This document shows positions 30,411 to 37,263 of a DNA stretch of 64,000 nucleotides, piece after piece. Within the stretch, counting starts at the first letter, position 1, and every line of letters starts with the position of its first letter. The notes beneath the pieces are model-generated. The model was not told where the DNA came from and made no database searches. It was given only the letters and a program-made list of their open reading frames with translations. This stretch comes from Lachnospiraceae bacterium (GTDB lineage: Bacteria > Bacillota > Clostridia > Lachnospirales > Lachnospiraceae): NCBI GenBank assembly GCA_017408025.1, contig JAFQVJ010000068.1:107440-171439 (forward strand), read 5' to 3'. Made by a program: the position numbers and the translations under genes.

Positions 30411-31238
30411 TTATTTTTCAAATATCTCTTTTTTATTGATAATAAATACACCTACCACTAAGCTGACTATCAACGGTATCAGCATGTATACTATACCCTC
30501 TGTCGGTTTTATATCTCTTCCGCTGGACATGTAATCACGAACTAACATAGTATAACTAGCTAAAAAAACTTTGTTCAATATAAGTACTCCAGCCATATGA
30601 TATATCATAATTAGCAGGAAGCTTACTATCGGTCCCATAATCATAGACAGCATTACCTGTACACTGGATACCATAAGTGAATAAAGTAACGGCATAACAA
30701 ATACATAGAGTATCATATTCGTCTGAGATATTCCACCAATATAGGACTGGTCCATGTTCATAAACAAGTCTGAATGATATTTAAAGCTTATAGAACAGCC
30801 AGTAGCAACACAGTATATAAATATAATCATATACACTATTAGATAACACAATATAACTGTAACAAACATCCACAGGCACTTACTAAACCACCAGTTTTTC
30901 TTCTTTTCAACTCGTATAAATACCTGCTTACCATATCCATATATATCATCAAATGGATAATATCCAACCATAGTTGCAACAATAATCTGCATACCAATGA
31001 ATGTAATGGGAATATCTACCGTACCAATATCTAAATTTATCTCTTTTGCTCCCTTAAAAAAATATATCAAATGATCCATAAATGTTCTGGATTCATCATC
31101 TATATATATTTCTGAAAACGTACTGAAGAGCACACAGCATATGACAGCAAATATAGCAGCTATCACATACTTTTTGTAATTATATACAAATCCACATCTT
31201 AGGTCATATTTAATTATTCTATATAATCTATGCTTCAT
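30411..31238 (-). CDS. ABC-2-type transporter permease-like membrane protein (second permease)
   Basis: About 6 TM helices. Starts at the internal ATG 31238 (MKHRLYRIIKYDL...), 17 nt after the ATPase stop. The layout is typical of LanE/LanG-like permeases. Confidence 0.62.
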   Translation of the reverse strand: MKHRLYRIIKYDLRCGFVYNYKKYVIAAIFAVICCVLFSTFSEIYIDDESRTFMDHLIYFFKGAKEINLDIGTVDIPITFIGMQIIVATMVGYYPFDDIYGYGKQVFIRVEKKKNWWFSKCLWMFVTVILCYLIVYMIIFIYCVATGCSISFKYHSDLFMNMDQSYIGGISQTNMILYVFVMPLLYSLMVSSVQVMLSMIMGPIVSFLLIMIYHMAGVLILNKVFLASYTMLVRDYMSSGRDIKPTEGIVYMLIPLIVSLVVGVFIINKKEIFEK

Positions 31239-31254
31239 ATATAACACCTTTCCC

Positions 31255-31929
31255 TTACGCCTGTTGACTCTGCTCTTCTTTACGTTCATCCACCTTATAC
31301 TGTTTCTTTATTATACCTCCATCTATCTCAATTATCTCATCTGAAAGATAGAACAGCTCTTCTTTATCATGACATGCCAAAATGACAACCTTATCTTCTT
31401 TCTTTAGTTCATCAAGAATCTCTCTTATAATTTTTACACCCTCTTCATCTACAGCATTGACAGGCTCGTCCAGTATAATAATATCTGGTTTCTCCATTAT
31501 AGCACAGGCAATACCAAGCTTCTGTTTCATGCCAAGAGAATACTTTTTGTACTTTTTCTTATCTTCCGGATCAAGGCCTACACGCTCTATAACTGCCTTA
31601 ATCTCCTCATCACTGATAATATTCTTGATAGATGCTATCATTTTCAGATTGTCAAAGCCCGAGTATGATGGTAAAAACGCAGGATTTTCTATAAGCAAAC
31701 CAATACTTTCCGGAAACGACATATCCTTGCCTAAAATTTTACCACCTATAACCACTTCTCCCTCTGTAGCTGTTATCAAGCCTGATATAATGCGCATGAG
31801 CATAGTCTTTCCACTGCCATTTTTTCCCTTCAAACCATATATTTTCCCTGTATTCATGCCTACATTGATACCCGAAAGAACAGTATTACTTCCTATTTTT
31901 TTAGTTACATTTTTAACTTCTATGTACAT
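31255..31929 (-). CDS. ABC transporter ATP-binding protein
   Basis: Walker A GKNGSGKT, signature YSLGMKQK, Walker B IIILDEP. Start ATG at 31929 (MYIEVKNVTKK) follows GAGGAAAAAATA. Confidence 0.9.
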   Translation of the reverse strand: MYIEVKNVTKKIGSNTVLSGINVGMNTGKIYGLKGKNGSGKTMLMRIISGLITATEGEVVIGGKILGKDMSFPESIGLLIENPAFLPSYSGFDNLKMIASIKNIISDEEIKAVIERVGLDPEDKKKYKKYSLGMKQKLGIACAIMEKPDIIILDEPVNAVDEEGVKIIREILDELKKEDKVVILACHDKEELFYLSDEIIEIDGGIIKKQYKVDERKEEQSQQA

Positions 31930-31942
31930 TATTTTTTCCTCG

Positions 31943-32917
31943 CTATTTTTTGCCAAGCTTTTCCAGCTCTGTAAACGGCAGCAGATAAACTTCCGCAGCA
32001 TTAAAATTCTCTATATTTGTGTTGTAGCCTTCATCCATAACAAGATACATATCCTCCATTTCATCCTCAACAAAAATATATATTATCTCACCTATATATT
32101 CTTCCTTTGGTTCTAAAACAATACAGCTTGGATTCACGCCACCTGAATCACGCAAAAACTTATCTGCCATATTGGTGTAAATTGGTTCACCGCCGGTTGT
32201 ATAATCAGACTTATATACCATTGTTTTTCTGTATAACTTTCCATCATCAAGATATGTAAAATCCTCCATATAATGCATATTATAAAGCCATATCTCATTT
32301 TCTGTTGGCAAGAGGTTAGTGTATTTTACTGTTAATTTCACAGCTTTAAGTTTTTGATTTTCTATAATTGTCTCCTCACCATAATCAAGATCACCATATC
32401 TAACCTTTTTTTTCTGCGTAAATGTATTAAATGTACCATCCGTATTTATCAAACCTTTTTGTAATTCTTTACATAAATCATTGGTAAAGCCATGTTCAAA
32501 TGCTCCACTTATTCCATCCATCGTAACATTTAACCCACTAAAATATTTTGTCAAATCATCTATCTCCTCATATCCTAAAAACTCCACCTCAGCATATGAC
32601 ATGATATGTCTGAATTTATATTTATCAGTTATAAATTCCTTATTGATTTCCCTGCTGTCATATCTATCTTTATATTCACCTTTATGATATTCTGCATTAG
32701 CCTCAGCCTCCCTAATGGTTTCACTCATCTCATTCCATTCACTTTGTAATTCCTGCATTTCAGCTTGTTCCGCTTCATTCAATTTTGCCAATTCTTCCGA
32801 AGACAAAGTACTACTCTCTTCACTATCATTCTTTATAATCACCATAGCAACAATCATCACACATACTAACATTACCAATATAATTGTAAAAATTAAATTT
32901 TTCTTTTTATTATACAT
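31943..32917 (-). CDS. Hypothetical N-terminally anchored extracytoplasmic protein
   Basis: 324 aa: TM helix (LIFTIILVMLVCVMIVAMVII), an acidic coiled segment (EELAKLNEAEQAEMQELQSEW), then a ~230-aa globular region. No family recognised. Confidence 0.55.
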   Translation of the reverse strand: MYNKKKNLIFTIILVMLVCVMIVAMVIIKNDSEESSTLSSEELAKLNEAEQAEMQELQSEWNEMSETIREAEANAEYHKGEYKDRYDSREINKEFITDKYKFRHIMSYAEVEFLGYEEIDDLTKYFSGLNVTMDGISGAFEHGFTNDLCKELQKGLINTDGTFNTFTQKKKVRYGDLDYGEETIIENQKLKAVKLTVKYTNLLPTENEIWLYNMHYMEDFTYLDDGKLYRKTMVYKSDYTTGGEPIYTNMADKFLRDSGGVNPSCIVLEPKEEYIGEIIYIFVEDEMEDMYLVMDEGYNTNIENFNAAEVYLLPFTELEKLGKK

Positions 32918-32937
32918 TTTTACCCTCCTACAGCCTG

Positions 32938-33516
32938 CTACAACTCAAAGCAATACACCAATCCATTTTCACTATCATCAATATTTATCTGAATATCATC
33001 TACATCAAGTTCATTAAATGTTTTTTCGGAATAATAACATCCCCAAATACCAAACACAACAAGATATTCTCTTGGTTCACCAATATTTAAGTCATCAATT
33101 ATTATACTTCCATTATTCATATAATACATATAGTCTATCATTACTGGGCTGACATCATATTCATTATATGCGTACATCCTCGATGTATCAATTTGATAAT
33201 TTTCCTCCAATGCTGTAATTTCAAACTTAACTAGAACATATTTCTGCTGACCTAATTCTTCTTCATCTAGATCTAATTGTGTTCTATGTTCTTCAAGACC
33301 ATATACCTTAAGAATTTCATCAAAGTCATATATCTCTGCACTATTAAGTCTGTATCTTACGCCTTGATAATCTAACGCATCCCCATATCCATAATGTACA
33401 TCTTCTGGAATTCTATACTTTGCATATGTGTCATAAATCTTAACTCCCCATATAACAAGCAATATCACCAAAAGTAAAACTCCTATGATTTTCTTGATTT
33501 TTATATTTTTTCTCAT
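32938..33516 (-). CDS. Hypothetical N-terminally anchored extracytoplasmic protein
   Basis: 192 aa: TM helix (IIGVLLLVILLVIWGV) plus a beta-rich-looking domain. The start codon overlaps the upstream stop (TGATG). Confidence 0.55.
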   Translation of the reverse strand: MRKNIKIKKIIGVLLLVILLVIWGVKIYDTYAKYRIPEDVHYGYGDALDYQGVRYRLNSAEIYDFDEILKVYGLEEHRTQLDLDEEELGQQKYVLVKFEITALEENYQIDTSRMYAYNEYDVSPVMIDYMYYMNNGSIIIDDLNIGEPREYLVVFGIWGCYYSEKTFNELDVDDIQINIDDSENGLVYCFEL

Positions 33517-34340
33517 CAGTACACCTCCTTCTTGGAGCTAACAAACCCAAAATATGTACATACGAATAATATAATAATTTCAACAAAAAGAATACTATAG
33601 TTATATTGACTATTTGTTTGCGCATGAAGTGTAGCTGAAAAATCTATTTCACCTACACCTGTTACTCTGCTAAGAAATATCAGCATAAACGATAATACAA
33701 AAGGTGTGATAAACACACTAAAATAATTGTATATATGTTTAGAGACAAGTAACGCTAAAGTAGCAAGCAAGCCTGCAACCACAAATACCAGTAGTATTCT
33801 AAACAAAGTATATATCATAGGGTGTTCATAAAACAAATCTATGCAGAATGTTTCTTCCCCTATAATAGCCATATAATACCTATATGGCTTATGTAAAGGT
33901 AATATAGTTGCCAATGCAAAGAATTGTGCTAGCATAGGTACAACCACTACCATACCACCTGTTATAAAGGTTGCTATATATTTTGCTCTCATATATGTCT
34001 TCATAGACATTCGCGATACCATCTGCTTTACATAACCAATCTTCATCTCTGAATAAAATGAAGTTCCGTATGGAAGTGTAGCCAATATAGGCATAATAAA
34101 GAATATAATAACAATATGTTGATTAGGACTAAATAATATCCATTGGTCATATGGAGTTGCTTCACATACACCTTCAACACCTATATATCCAAACTCTTTG
34201 CCGATATCATCAATAAAAACACAACTATCATACACCTCCATAAAATGCATAATGCAAAATACAGCTACACATAGAAAGGATAAAAGAGTCCACTTGTTAA
34301 AAATTCCTCTTTTCAATTCATTTTTTAGCACTCTGTACAT
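33516..34340 (-). CDS. ABC-2-type transporter permease-like membrane protein (first permease)
   Basis: 274 aa with about 6 TM helices. The N-terminus MYRVLKNELKRGIFNKW is typical of ABC-2/LanE-like permeases. RBS GTGAGGT is present. Confidence 0.6.
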   Translation of the reverse strand: MYRVLKNELKRGIFNKWTLLSFLCVAVFCIMHFMEVYDSCVFIDDIGKEFGYIGVEGVCEATPYDQWILFSPNQHIVIIFFIMPILATLPYGTSFYSEMKIGYVKQMVSRMSMKTYMRAKYIATFITGGMVVVVPMLAQFFALATILPLHKPYRYYMAIIGEETFCIDLFYEHPMIYTLFRILLVFVVAGLLATLALLVSKHIYNYFSVFITPFVLSFMLIFLSRVTGVGEIDFSATLHAQTNSQYNYSILFVEIIILFVCTYFGFVSSKKEVY

Positions 34341-34402
34341 TTATATAACCTCACAAAAATAATACTTTAAAATCTACAACCAACAGACATCTCTATATAT
34401 AC

Positions 34403-34494
34403 ACTATAGTTTCTCATTTGACCATTGCGAAGTTGTATTTTTTCACCTTTTAAAAAAATACAACTTCGCAATGGCGTATTAGCTTTTTTATATT
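34403..34494. promoter_or_regulatory. Divergent promoter pair sharing a perfect 22-bp inverted repeat (candidate operator)
   Basis: Arms are 34422-34443 (CCATTGCGAAGTTGTATTTTTT) and 34453-34474, with a 9-nt spacer. Each arm contains an outward-facing TTCGCA. On the minus strand this gives TTCGCA-N17-TATAGT; on the plus strand TTCGCA-N18-TATATT. Confidence 0.55.
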
Positions 34495-34532
34495 ATATTA
34501 CATTTAAAATTAAACAAAAGGAGATTTCACAA

Positions 34533-34673
34533 ATGAAAACACTTAAAAAATTTATAACACTTATCTCATGCGTATGTATTATTACAACCTCTATTAAGAT
34601 ACCTTTTTATTCAGAGTCGCCTAATTATTCAGTATACTCTGATGATCATAAAGAGTCCAACATAAAAAACTAA
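34533..34673 (+). CDS. Small exported pro-peptide candidate (46 aa)
   Basis: AAAGGAG RBS lies 7 nt upstream of the ATG. Sequence is MKTLKKFITLISCVCIITTSIKIPFYS-ESPNYSVYSDDHKESNIKN: a basic N-terminus, a hydrophobic core, then a hydrophilic tail. Its stop is 2 nt from the stop of the convergent regulator. Confidence 0.5.
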   Translation: MKTLKKFITLISCVCIITTSIKIPFYSESPNYSVYSDDHKESNIKN

Positions 34674-34675
34674 GT

Positions 34676-36472
34676 TTAAAAAGGCAAAATAATATTATGT
34701 TTTGTACACAAATTTCTAATTCTGCTAATTGAAGCTTTATTCTTATATAACTCGGCTATAACATAGGCATATTTAAGGTTTTCTTCACATTTCATTTTTT
34801 CTTCCATGCTGATGTTTTCTTTTTTTTCTAAAATATTCCACGCAATATCATATGATAAACTTCTAATATGCAACAACATATCTATTTTTACCGATGCACA
34901 AATACATATATGCAGTAAACTGTTAGCGTCGTTAACATTTCCCATCTCACCTAATATATCTCCATGCATATTATTAATATTCAAATACATAAATCCATTT
35001 TTGTGTATCATCTTTTCGTTGTATATATCTGCAAGTGCACTTAAATATTTTCTACATTCGTCGTAACTACTGTCGTATTTTTTACATATAATAATCTTAC
35101 GCAATAAGTTCCATTCGTTATAAAAAAGAATTACGCCTTCCTTTTTCAGTTTATTTATGTCTACAATGCTCTCATTCAATATTTCCTTTAACTTATTTAA
35201 ATATATTATAACATTATCTTGAACATTGTCATATTCAAACATAGTTGCACATATAAATTGTCTACTATTTACACTTTCTAGCTTATATTCAGCTTGAATT
35301 TCTTCTAAAATACTTGTAATTTTATAATGTTCCTCCCTATTGCATGAATCTCGTATCTCATTTATCTTTTCAAACGCCTTATAATCATATGTGTCAATTC
35401 TTGCCACATACTTATCTCCAGACAGTTTCACTCTCTGCAACAGCTTTTCCTTTTTTTCCTTTTGAAGACTTCTTCTATTATTCTCCATCTGTGAAACAGT
35501 GCTAATATCACATATACCAAAAGCTAATTCTGCTTGAGTTATCCCTAACATTTTTCTGCGCTGACTTATTATTTCATTGACATTATAAGCATCTATCTCC
35601 TCATACCTAGGAAAAAACTCTTCTACACTTCGAACTCCATACTGCATTTTAAACTCATTAAGCACAGCTATATACTTTTTTTCCACTGACATATCTTCGC
35701 CTTTACGCTCAAGACAAGTGATTATTCCCTCCTTAAGCTCTGTTAAAAACATAATAAAATCACCATTTAAAGTATATTCATATGTCTTTTCAGCTATTTC
35801 CAATGCCGCATCATACATTTCATGTCTCAGATAATATTTCATACTCCAATATCCCACATGTCGATAAAGCAATTCCCTTTCAGACCGGTCATACCTGGTA
35901 TCTTCCAATACATCCAATATATCCTTATATAATTTTATTGCTTGCTCTTCTTCTCCAGACAACTCCATATATCTTACGTATTGCTGTATGAGCAACATTT
36001 CCATACGACTTAAGTAATATTCATTAAGCTTATCTATATCAAATTTAGAACGAGTAATCTTTAAACCGGTCATTATCATATCCATACAAGAACTTATATT
36101 TTCACCTGTTCTATGCATAATTTCACATTCCACCAGACACAAATACTGTTCTTCTAACCTGCTGTGTCCGTTTTTTCTATACTCATCTATCTTACTTTTG
36201 GCCTCGTTATAATTCCCCTCATCTATAGTATCATATATCTCCCATCTCTTTTCCAACCTTTCATACTCATCAACATCTAACAGCATCTCAAAGCGCCCAC
36301 TATACTTTCCCAATCTTTGATATAGACTTTCAAATAGCAGCTTGTCCGCATCTCTTTTGTTGTTCTCAATATGAGTCAAATATCCTACAGAGCATAAGCC
36401 CTCTGACAAGGTTTTCCTACTTATTCCAAGACTTTCTCTTATATTCCATAGTAGTTTTCCTGTGTATAACAT
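34676..36472 (-). CDS. Tandem (duplicated) XRE-HTH / TPR-like transcriptional regulator, RRNPP-like
   Basis: Two HTH segments: LWNIRESLGISRKTLSEGLCSVGYLTHIENNKR near the N-terminus and QRRKMLGITQAELAFGICDISTVSQMENNRR around residue 310. Each is followed by about 230 aa of helical repeats. ATG at 36472 is preceded by AAAGGTGA. Confidence 0.78.
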   Translation of the reverse strand: MLYTGKLLWNIRESLGISRKTLSEGLCSVGYLTHIENNKRDADKLLFESLYQRLGKYSGRFEMLLDVDEYERLEKRWEIYDTIDEGNYNEAKSKIDEYRKNGHSRLEEQYLCLVECEIMHRTGENISSCMDMIMTGLKITRSKFDIDKLNEYYLSRMEMLLIQQYVRYMELSGEEEQAIKLYKDILDVLEDTRYDRSERELLYRHVGYWSMKYYLRHEMYDAALEIAEKTYEYTLNGDFIMFLTELKEGIITCLERKGEDMSVEKKYIAVLNEFKMQYGVRSVEEFFPRYEEIDAYNVNEIISQRRKMLGITQAELAFGICDISTVSQMENNRRSLQKEKKEKLLQRVKLSGDKYVARIDTYDYKAFEKINEIRDSCNREEHYKITSILEEIQAEYKLESVNSRQFICATMFEYDNVQDNVIIYLNKLKEILNESIVDINKLKKEGVILFYNEWNLLRKIIICKKYDSSYDECRKYLSALADIYNEKMIHKNGFMYLNINNMHGDILGEMGNVNDANSLLHICICASVKIDMLLHIRSLSYDIAWNILEKKENISMEEKMKCEENLKYAYVIAELYKNKASISRIRNLCTKHNIILPF

Positions 36473-36519
36473 ATAATCACCTTTTCTTCCAATTTTACAC
36501 ATTTTCAGTATTTTGTATA

Positions 36520-37263
36520 CTATCTATGTATAGCATAAGTTGTCACGCCATCCACCGTTGCCATATTAGCATAATCTTTAAATATCTTCCAAAAGCCCTG
36601 ACGGCTCATTTTTCTGCCAAAACGATTTAAAAATAATTCACCTGTATCCTCGCCCTTTATATAGCTGCCCCTTGCCCTTCCTATATATTTATCTAATGCG
36701 CATAATGTATCCTTGCTAAAGCGTATGGTTTTATCTTTTTTTCTGCCATGACATGTCACATATGCATATTGGAGGTTTACATCCTCGGTCTTTAATTCTA
36801 TGATTTCACTTACTTTTATACCTGTATCTATCATCAGCTTGAGCATAGCCCTGTCTCTAAGTTCTTTATTTCCATCTCCTGATATCTGATTCAGGATTTT
36901 ATTCATATTCTCATCAGATATTGCCTCTGTCTTCTTTCTGTCATTTTGAGGTATCTGGAGATTTTCTGTAGGTTCCCTCTTCACTGCACCGTTGTTAATC
37001 ATACATCTAAAAAACGTTTTAATAGCTGACGCATTTCTCGCAATAGTAGCTGCAGATTTTCCCAATCGTTCCATATATAAAATATATGAATTAATATTTG
37101 TTCCATTTATCTTACTGACATCTTCTATTCCCTGTTCCATAAAATACTTTGCCATAGCATTCAAATCACGCTTATATGACTGCAAAGTATTATCCGAAGC
37201 ATTTTTCACCTTTTTCATATACTCCATAAAAAAATCTATATTGACTACAATATTATTATCCAT
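36520..37263 (-). CDS. XerD-like tyrosine-recombinase homolog, short and active-site degenerate
   Basis: N-terminal SAM-like domain (TLQSYKRDLNAMAKYF), then RDRAMLKLMIDTGIKVSEI with Lys in place of the first catalytic Arg. The protein ends at ...TTYAIHR, before the His/Tyr box. Confidence 0.72.
   Translation of the reverse strand: MDNNIVVNIDFFMEYMKKVKNASDNTLQSYKRDLNAMAKYFMEQGIEDVSKINGTNINSYILYMERLGKSAATIARNASAIKTFFRCMINNGAVKREPTENLQIPQNDRKKTEAISDENMNKILNQISGDGNKELRDRAMLKLMIDTGIKVSEIIELKTEDVNLQYAYVTCHGRKKDKTIRFSKDTLCALDKYIGRARGSYIKGEDTGELFLNRFGRKMSRQGFWKIFKDYANMATVDGVTTYAIHR

Follow-up and report, generated by a model that had tools for sequence, protein, structure and literature searches.

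A short open reading frame of 46 codons lies tail to tail with the gene of a large HTH regulator in the 64-kb stretch of Lachnospiraceae DNA analysed here (the window), which raises the question of whether its product is a signal sensed by that regulator, something else which the regulator controls, or no protein at all. The window is chromosomal; it contains recA, recX, the gene for RNase Y, a che cluster, proC, spoIIM and a NUDIX gene. The reading we favour, with a probability of roughly 75%, is that the ORF encodes the pre-pro-peptide of a quorum-sensing cassette of the RRNPP type (PlcR/Rgg-like), the cytoplasmic receptor of which is the convergently encoded regulator. A pro-peptide of the Phr/PapR/NprX type had been suggested in the original prediction; the conservation of the ORF, the co-variation of its tail with the C-terminal domain of the regulator and the PlcR/Rgg-type fold of the latter all support this assignment.

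The small gene and its relatives

The features first needed are the following.

34533..34673, plus strand: putative pre-pro-peptide gene, 46 aa, with ATG at 34533 and TAA stop at 34671-34673
34517..34523, plus strand: ribosome-binding site AAAGGAG, with a spacer of 9 nt to ATG 34533
34676..36502, minus strand: regulator with two tandem PlcR/Rgg-like HTH+TPR modules (longest ORF, 608 aa)

The product of the small gene, MKTLKKFITLISCVCIITTSIKIPFYSESPNYSVYSDDHKESNIKN, consists of a signal-like region from residue 1 to about 20, a hydrophilic acidic tail and a hypervariable C-terminus. Coordinates and translation are exactly as first described, as is the succession of basic start, hydrophobic core and hydrophilic tail. 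The mechanically longest reading, of 82 aa, does indeed begin within the palindrome upstream, at TTG 34425 in the left of its two perfect 22-nt arms. The tail-to-tail arrangement likewise stands: the TAA ends at 34673 and the minus-strand regulator ORF at 34676, with 2 nt between the two stop codons. The ribosome-binding site is present where it had been reported, but its distance to the ATG is 9 nt, which is within the usual range, and not 7 nt. No terminator-like structure was found between the convergent peptide and regulator genes.

Inside the peptide gene, positions 34602-34632 (plus strand) hold a direct pseudo-repeat, CCTTTTTATTCAG / CCTAATTATTCAG, which encodes PFYSE and PNYSV; the tail contains xYS three times, and an S-x-Y periodicity of a similar kind is seen in the peptides of relatives. 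These repeats could be duplicated signal units or processing sites.

Loci were fetched for regulator homologs of 36-80% identity and for two far more distant members (P0059 and P0149); scans with the regulator profile gave three loci in genome contigs and four in metagenome contigs, and the gene context stems mainly from contigs encoding the homologs. At no fewer than ten distinct loci, two of them with distant members, an ORF of 45-52 aa and like layout converges on the 3′ end of the regulator gene. Most of the homologous ORFs are preceded by a GGAG-type ribosome-binding site; convergent ORF and such a site occur together in the window (WIN), L003/L005/L014/L016, L004, L006/7, L008/9, L010, L011/12, L013, L015, L021 and L022. 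The association with regulator homologs, on which the original prediction hinged, is borne out over a wide range, both the ORF and its frame being kept beside regulators from 80% down to about 26-28% identity in the N-terminal module. In intact loci the stop codons range from an overlap of 29 nt to a separation of 3 nt, with L013 at 179 nt apart. With a profile built from nine of the peptides, 16 peptide clusters, all of them unnamed, were retrieved from the protein database, and no family in Pfam or NCBIfam matches the peptide.

All fetched loci have the convergent small ORF with two exceptions, a remnant in L001 and a frameshifted copy of the L008 type in L002/L019. In L001 (3114-3200, minus strand) the peptide gene is cut down to an ORF of 22 codons, MLCFHEITLLFSDDKDDPEHRS, with a GAGGTG ribosome-binding site of its own and half a palindromic box only upstream, and the regulator is intact; this may be a leaderless variant or the decaying locus of an “orphan receptor”. 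In two records that may not be independent, L002 (6846-6932) and L019 (952-1108), the gene is shifted relative to that of L008 (5767-5922) by one extra A (A8 vs A7) in a poly(A) run across which the genes of L008/L009 are in frame; phase variation, decay or a homopolymer sequencing error could each account for it.

The operons beyond the small ORF differ wholly between loci.

Window and L004: ABC-2-type operon
L003, L005 and L014: ABC exporter and radical-SAM gene
L006 and L008: Cys-rich precursor, radical-SAM/SPASM enzyme and ABC exporter
L010: dpaA-like genes
L011: phoH-like genes

Because the other flanking genes change completely from locus to locus, the regulator is the constant partner of the small ORF.

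The regulator and the variable cassette it shares with the peptide gene

Translation of the regulator likely starts at ATG 36472 (MLYTGK), which is preceded by an AAAGGTG ribosome-binding site, agrees with the start of all homologs and results in a protein of 598 aa. Two HTH_3 domains were found with Pfam, at about residues 15-65 and 312-350; there are also weak TPR matches, and the two halves of the protein are 32% identical (E 2e-9) across the HTH and the first helices following it. The AlphaFold2 model is all-helical, with two HTH-plus-repeat modules (pLDDT 89.9, pTM 0.90). In a Foldseek comparison of the whole model the top PDB match was the PlcR-PapR7-DNA complex (3u3w_A; E 1.2e-5, TM 0.62 on the target), with ComR and Rgg2 next, among generic TPR proteins; when module 1 was modelled alone (pLDDT 86.9), PlcR accounted for the top five matches, the full ~280 residues being aligned. 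Module 2 is matched, by means of the family profile, to Rgg2 (4yv6, 5w4m) and Lmo0325 (4ryk). The sequence identity of the regulator to PlcR is 14-17%. By its modelled structure, the regulator is a PlcR/Rgg-type receptor, in line with the RRNPP pairing of the original prediction, and a fusion of two modules, which had gone unmentioned.

With a threshold of E<=1e-3, an exhaustive profile search returned 3497 representatives of 50% identity clusters; E<=1e-30 leaves no fewer than 503 clusters. The 150 best are, with few exceptions, 590-650 aa long and match end to end. The closest named relatives are from Lachnospiraceae MAGs of gut or faecal origin, and Pfam and NCBIfam hold no family name for the two-module regulators. 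In the operational definition of RRNPP_detector, a receptor has a single module and 250-500 aa (PMC10075063); the regulator, with two modules and 598-608 aa, lies outside it, and the two-module family would be missed by this tool because its filter takes only 250-500 aa (PMC10075063). A search of the literature, the coverage of which was limited and which does not prove novelty, found no two-module RRNPP receptor of ~600 aa.

A gene for a XerD-like tyrosine recombinase (window 36520-37263, minus strand, 247 aa) ends 17 nt before the regulator ORF. Its product aligns to positions 4-124 of the 172 of the Phage_integrase profile and, since the match stops at position 124, is devoid of the C-terminal catalytic region; a 247-aa gene is also present in L004 at the position of the XerD-like recombinase. 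Possibly the 3′ end of the recombinase gene was the insertion site of the block of regulator, peptide and ABC genes.

The part of the regulator nearest to the small gene, together with most of the small gene, forms one further feature.

about 34585..35340, unstranded: contiguous hypervariable specificity cassette, comprising regulator residues ~388-608 and peptide codons 18-46

In the window the cassette covers the whole repeat domain of module 2. Comparison of the window with the near-isogenic L004 shows 98.6-99.4% identity in the flanks (3.6 and 3.4 kb) and 50-70% in the cassette. A second, independent locus behaves alike: L005 and L014 show 100% identity as far as regulator residue ~410, drop to 39-69% from there to peptide codon 37, and are back at 97-100% beyond. 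Both sets of near-identical strains thus have flanks of 97-100% DNA identity around one block of 39-70%, which consists of the C-terminal repeat domain of the regulator and the C-terminal 9-29 codons of the peptide. The corresponding protein identities, as fractions, are given below for Module 1, HTH2, the C-domain, and the first 18 and last 10 residues of the peptide.

Pair: Module 1; HTH2; C-domain; peptide first 18; peptide last 10
WIN vs L004:.99;.94;.47;.94;.30
L003 vs L005: 1.0;.94;.58; 1.0;.50
L005 vs L014: 1.0; 1.0;.43; 1.0;.30
L014 vs L016 (same tail):.99;.98;.98; 1.0; 1.0

Peptides of the MKNIKK subfamily diverge exactly from the end of SVYSD onwards, and nine allele-specific residues remain (ENSYPITKD, ETTYPVPKN, DKDDILIKN, EKGEAITKQ or DKEHIITKD). 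On the side of the regulator, residues 391-510 are the least conserved portion family-wide. That the C-terminal residues of the peptide should co-vary with the regulator was an expectation of the original prediction, and in two independent loci the tails do differ together with the C-domain. A Spearman correlation of peptide-tail with regulator-segment identities over all pairs of loci gave no information, since distant pairs are saturated; the near-isogenic pairs alone are of use here.

The variable segments being contiguous, such co-variation could also come about without functional coupling, as one recombination or hypervariable block. Functional coupling is argued for by the boundaries, which coincide with domain borders in two independent loci, and by the reading frames, both of which are intact. 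Judged from these alignments, the C-terminal codons of the peptide and the sensing domain of the regulator are a pherotype-like, apparently swappable specificity block.

The palindromic box, the divergent operons and other readings of the small ORF

On the other side of the peptide gene lie a palindrome and a divergent operon.

34422..34474, unstranded: perfect palindrome of 53 bp, candidate operator, with arms of 22 nt each (34422-34443 and 34453-34474) and a 9-nt spacer
34465..34494, plus strand: sigma-70-like promoter of the peptide gene, a consensus match only, with -35 TTCGCA (right palindrome arm), 18 nt and -10 TATATT
34403..34431, minus strand: sigma-70-like promoter of the divergent ABC operon, a consensus match only, with -35 TTCGCA (left palindrome arm), 17 nt and -10 TATAGT
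30411..34340, minus strand: divergent five-gene operon, probable target, encoding a 274-aa permease, membrane-anchored proteins of 192 aa and 324 aa, an ABC ATPase and a 292-aa permease

The outer half-sites of the palindrome in the window are CCATTGCGAA; the pattern CCATNGCRAA-N18-36-TTYGCNATGG has one match in the 64-kb window and 0 in 100 shuffles. L002-L009 each have one box of the CCATNGCRAA type, and L014 and L016 contain such a box too; it always lies 5′ of the peptide gene, 57-62 nt from the ATG (73 nt in L008/L002). L010 has a different palindrome, of 41 bp. In the window (81 nt for the ABC operon), L006 and L008, 75-81 nt separate the far edge of the box from the start codon that opens the divergent operon, the operons themselves being unrelated. 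Most boxes are 41-42 bp long, those of the window and L004 are 53 bp, a difference of about one helical turn; with 41-53 bp they are far larger than the known PlcR or Rgg boxes. The outer half-sites are conserved across loci and the inner stem varies, and TTCGCA in each arm of the palindrome occupies the -35 position of mirror-image promoters. We infer from this pattern that the box is the operator bound by the regulator; the divergent ABC operon is the probable target.

Matches to the PlcR box (TATGNAN4TNCATA) were at chance level, with none in the intergenic region 34341-34532; a known RNA family at 34200-34800 was discarded, as Rfam returned sub-threshold hairpin matches to miRNA models only. 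An intrinsic terminator was rejected as an identity for the palindrome, which is situated between two divergent starts, has no U-tract on the needed strand and is conserved in its outer half-sites. A terminator-like hairpin with a T-run, AAGCCTGGCAGAAT-A-ATTCTGTCAGGCTTTTTT, is found in L005 (6179-6213, plus strand), between the box and the ABC-exporter gene; it suggests that the box drives a short transcript, ~130-170 nt in length, in which no ORF is obvious.

Paralogous regulator loci adjoin radical-SAM/SPASM RiPP clusters with ABC exporters. In L006 (6101-6253, plus strand) and L008 (6115-6234, plus strand) Cys-rich precursor peptides, of which MYERPEFVFFDEEEIAKIRNCFCAFMAHCGPPFSQCRNR is an example, are encoded 75-78 nt from the box, and genes for radical-SAM/SPASM enzymes and ABC exporters follow; these are candidate quorum-controlled RiPP clusters in Lachnospiraceae.

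The ABC ATPase of the divergent operon in the window (31255-32001) has as its best match the lantibiotic-protection ABC ATPase TIGR03740 (E 3e-49, under the curated cut-off), and it also matches PmtC. Pfam and NCBIfam provide no family for the multi-pass permeases of 274 aa and 292 aa or for the 192-aa and 324-aa proteins (31943-33516, minus strand). The likeness of the ATPase to those of lantibiotic protection and PSM export, and the RiPP clusters in related loci, would suit a small ORF that encodes not the ligand of the regulator but a secreted or membrane-inserted effector under its control, either bacteriocin- or PSM-like or a subunit or substrate of the ABC transporter; the shared box could merely co-regulate peptide and transporter. 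However, the small ORF stays with the regulator while the operon changes from ABC-2 to RiPP cluster, dpaA-like or phoH-like, and the RiPP loci have separate precursor genes of their own. Further, the tail of the peptide co-varies with the C-domain of the regulator and not with the ABC genes, which are 99-100% identical between the window and L004 alleles; because of this identity the partner of the peptide is taken to be the regulator. We consider an effector unlikely.

The family peptides start with M-K/N...K-K, and as far as composition goes, all 15 compared have 2-3 K/R in the first 7 residues followed by 9-23 uncharged hydrophobic residues, and 14 of the 15 have small residues at -3/-1 around position 17-27. 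The mean Kyte-Doolittle hydropathy of the hydrophobic run is 1.7-3.1. As cleavage sites these -3/-1 positions are weak, and the window peptide has no AXA motif. The tails, of 17-37 residues, are mostly net-negative and hydrophilic; that of the L008 type is hydrophobic, not acidic. In most members the hydrophobic stretch, with its 15-23 residues, has the length needed to cross a membrane, and there is a lipobox-like L-I-S-C in the window peptide and V-V-A-C in the L003 type, as might be expected if the product were retained as a single-pass micro-protein or small lipoprotein and modulated the regulator or another partner without release and re-import. Yet the K-rich N-terminus predicts an N-in/C-out orientation, by which the co-varying tail would be outside the cell and the HTH regulator inside it; L008, L013 and L021 have no such Cys, in L006, L010 and L011 it is preceded by non-lipobox residues, and, being at position 13, it has only 12 residues before it. 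Membrane retention is thereby a quite improbable fate for the peptide. A bacterial lipoprotein in the strict sense was rejected: the lipobox [LVI][ASTVI][GAS]C after a signal of ~15-25 aa is not kept family-wide, and motif-like sequences are confined to the WIN/L004 and MKNIKK types.

Hardly credible, finally, is an untranslated ORF, with the 3′ UTR of the regulator or an antisense RNA as the conserved entity and the palindrome as a terminator: transcripts must overlap where no terminator separates the genes, and the palindrome folds strongly as RNA (z about -8), but between DNAs with 40-60% identity or less a frame of 45-52 codons persists, with its ribosome-binding site and a conserved Met-Lys start, the differences in the signal region of L015 are mostly synonymous, and the palindrome, which belongs to no Rfam family, lacks a U-tract on the needed strand and is conserved in its outer half-sites but not in its inner stem.

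A proposed signalling circuit and its place among known systems

For the small ORF as pre-pro-peptide and the regulator as receptor, the following course of events is conceivable. Transcription would proceed from the promoter with its -35 element in the right arm of the palindrome, and translation from ATG 34533. The Lys-rich hydrophobic N-terminus would direct the product to or through the membrane and be removed near residues 18-21; the acidic tail would then be cut back to a short peptide of the C-terminus, probably from among the last 9-10 residues (DHKESNIKN), a region suggested by the position of the allele-specific residues. In keeping with the RRNPP paradigm, an oligopeptide permease would re-import the peptide; in those parts of the window that were looked at, genes for an Opp transporter were not found. 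Inside the cell the peptide would bind the repeat domain of the second module, to which the co-variation points, and the regulator, positioned at the palindromic box, would control both the peptide gene (autoinduction) and the divergent ABC operon, as the conservation and geometry of the box suggest. On a more speculative note, the tail-to-tail overlap may serve to hold both specificity determinants in one exchangeable block of ~0.75 kb, with interference by convergent transcription or antisense RNA as a possible side effect, in favour of which speaks only the missing terminator between the two genes.

Among known systems, PlcR/PapR of the Bacillus cereus group is the closest in fold, size of the propeptide and pherotype behaviour. 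Among its pherotypes, the C-terminal region of the receptor and the C-terminus of the peptide co-vary. Shared with PlcR/PapR are a propeptide of ~48 aa, here with a putative N-terminal export signal and a putative active peptide at the C-terminus, HTH+TPR receptor modules, and a palindrome 5′ of the peptide gene, here a candidate operator. Here, however, two modules reside in one chain of ~600 aa; the peptide gene is convergent with and abuts the regulator gene, whereas papR lies co-directionally downstream of plcR; and the box is 41-53 bp long with CCATNGCRAA half-sites, the PlcR box being absent from the intergenic region.

In gene layout the closest are the group III Rgg/SHP systems, such as rgg1299 of Streptococcus thermophilus, where the peptide gene is convergent with the receptor gene and overlaps its 3′ end (PMC13361665). 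Here the stops are 2 nt apart, and those of relatives overlap by 4-29 nt or are 1-3 nt apart. A convergent layout is thus not as unusual for RRNPP pairs as the original prediction had it, there being precedent in group III Rgg/SHP (PMC13361665). Also reminiscent of Rgg/SHP are the profile similarity of module 2 to Rgg2 and Lmo0325 and the location of paralogous loci beside radical-SAM RiPP operons. Unlike the SHPs, which are short and hydrophobic, lack a Sec-type leader and are exported by PptAB, the peptides described here have 45-52 aa, a Sec-like N-terminus and a mostly acidic hydrophilic tail; further differences are the doubled receptor and the host, which belongs to the Lachnospiraceae and not to the streptococci.

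As to neighbourhood, the nearest counterpart is TprA/PhrA, known from Streptococcus pneumoniae and S. mitis: a PlcR-like regulator, encoded on the opposite strand from a propeptide bearing a signal peptide, controls an adjacent lantibiotic locus, and ABC transporters are nearby (PMC5436883). The RiPP-adjacent paralogous loci parallel both this control of lantibiotic loci by TprA/PhrA (PMC5436883) and the control of RaS-RiPPs by Rgg/SHP (PMC13361665). Unlike the regulator of the window, TprA is a single-module protein, and for that system there is no evidence of 3′-abutting convergence or a contiguous specificity cassette. In another RRNPP system, PrgX/PrgQ of plasmid pCF10 (Enterococcus faecalis), the peptide and receptor genes are transcribed against each other with an overlap, which contributes to regulation; there the overlap is at the 5′ ends, whereas in the window locus it would be at the 3′ ends.

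Three things set the loci apart from the known systems: a receptor with two modules, convergence with a gene for an acidic, Sec-like peptide, and the length of the box. A wider interpretation, which we hold tentatively and at somewhat short of even odds for its four features taken jointly, is that these loci stand for a class of Gram-positive peptide signalling systems which has escaped recognition and which abounds in the Lachnospiraceae of the gut and in other Clostridia. The receptor would be a covalent pseudo-dimer of two PlcR-like modules; the fast-evolving module 2 alone would read the peptide, the conserved module 1 serving DNA binding and dimer geometry; the overlap would be kept since the cassette of ~0.75 kb recombines, giving rise to new pherotypes; and RiPP and ABC-transporter operons would be gated via a long palindromic operator of two to four turns.

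Little of the peptide quorum sensing in gut Clostridia has been charted, and present genome-mining rules leave out receptors of more than 500 aa; the loci described here indicate a large family of doubled receptors with a conserved partner peptide, often beside operons of the RiPP/bacteriocin type and for transporters. If this is confirmed, the RRNPP group would gain a new receptor architecture, an intramolecular dimer, and one swappable specificity cassette would provide a simple genetic rationale for the convergent layout. Natural allele pairs (the window vs L004; L003, L005 and L014) would then be at hand for studying how signal specificity evolves.
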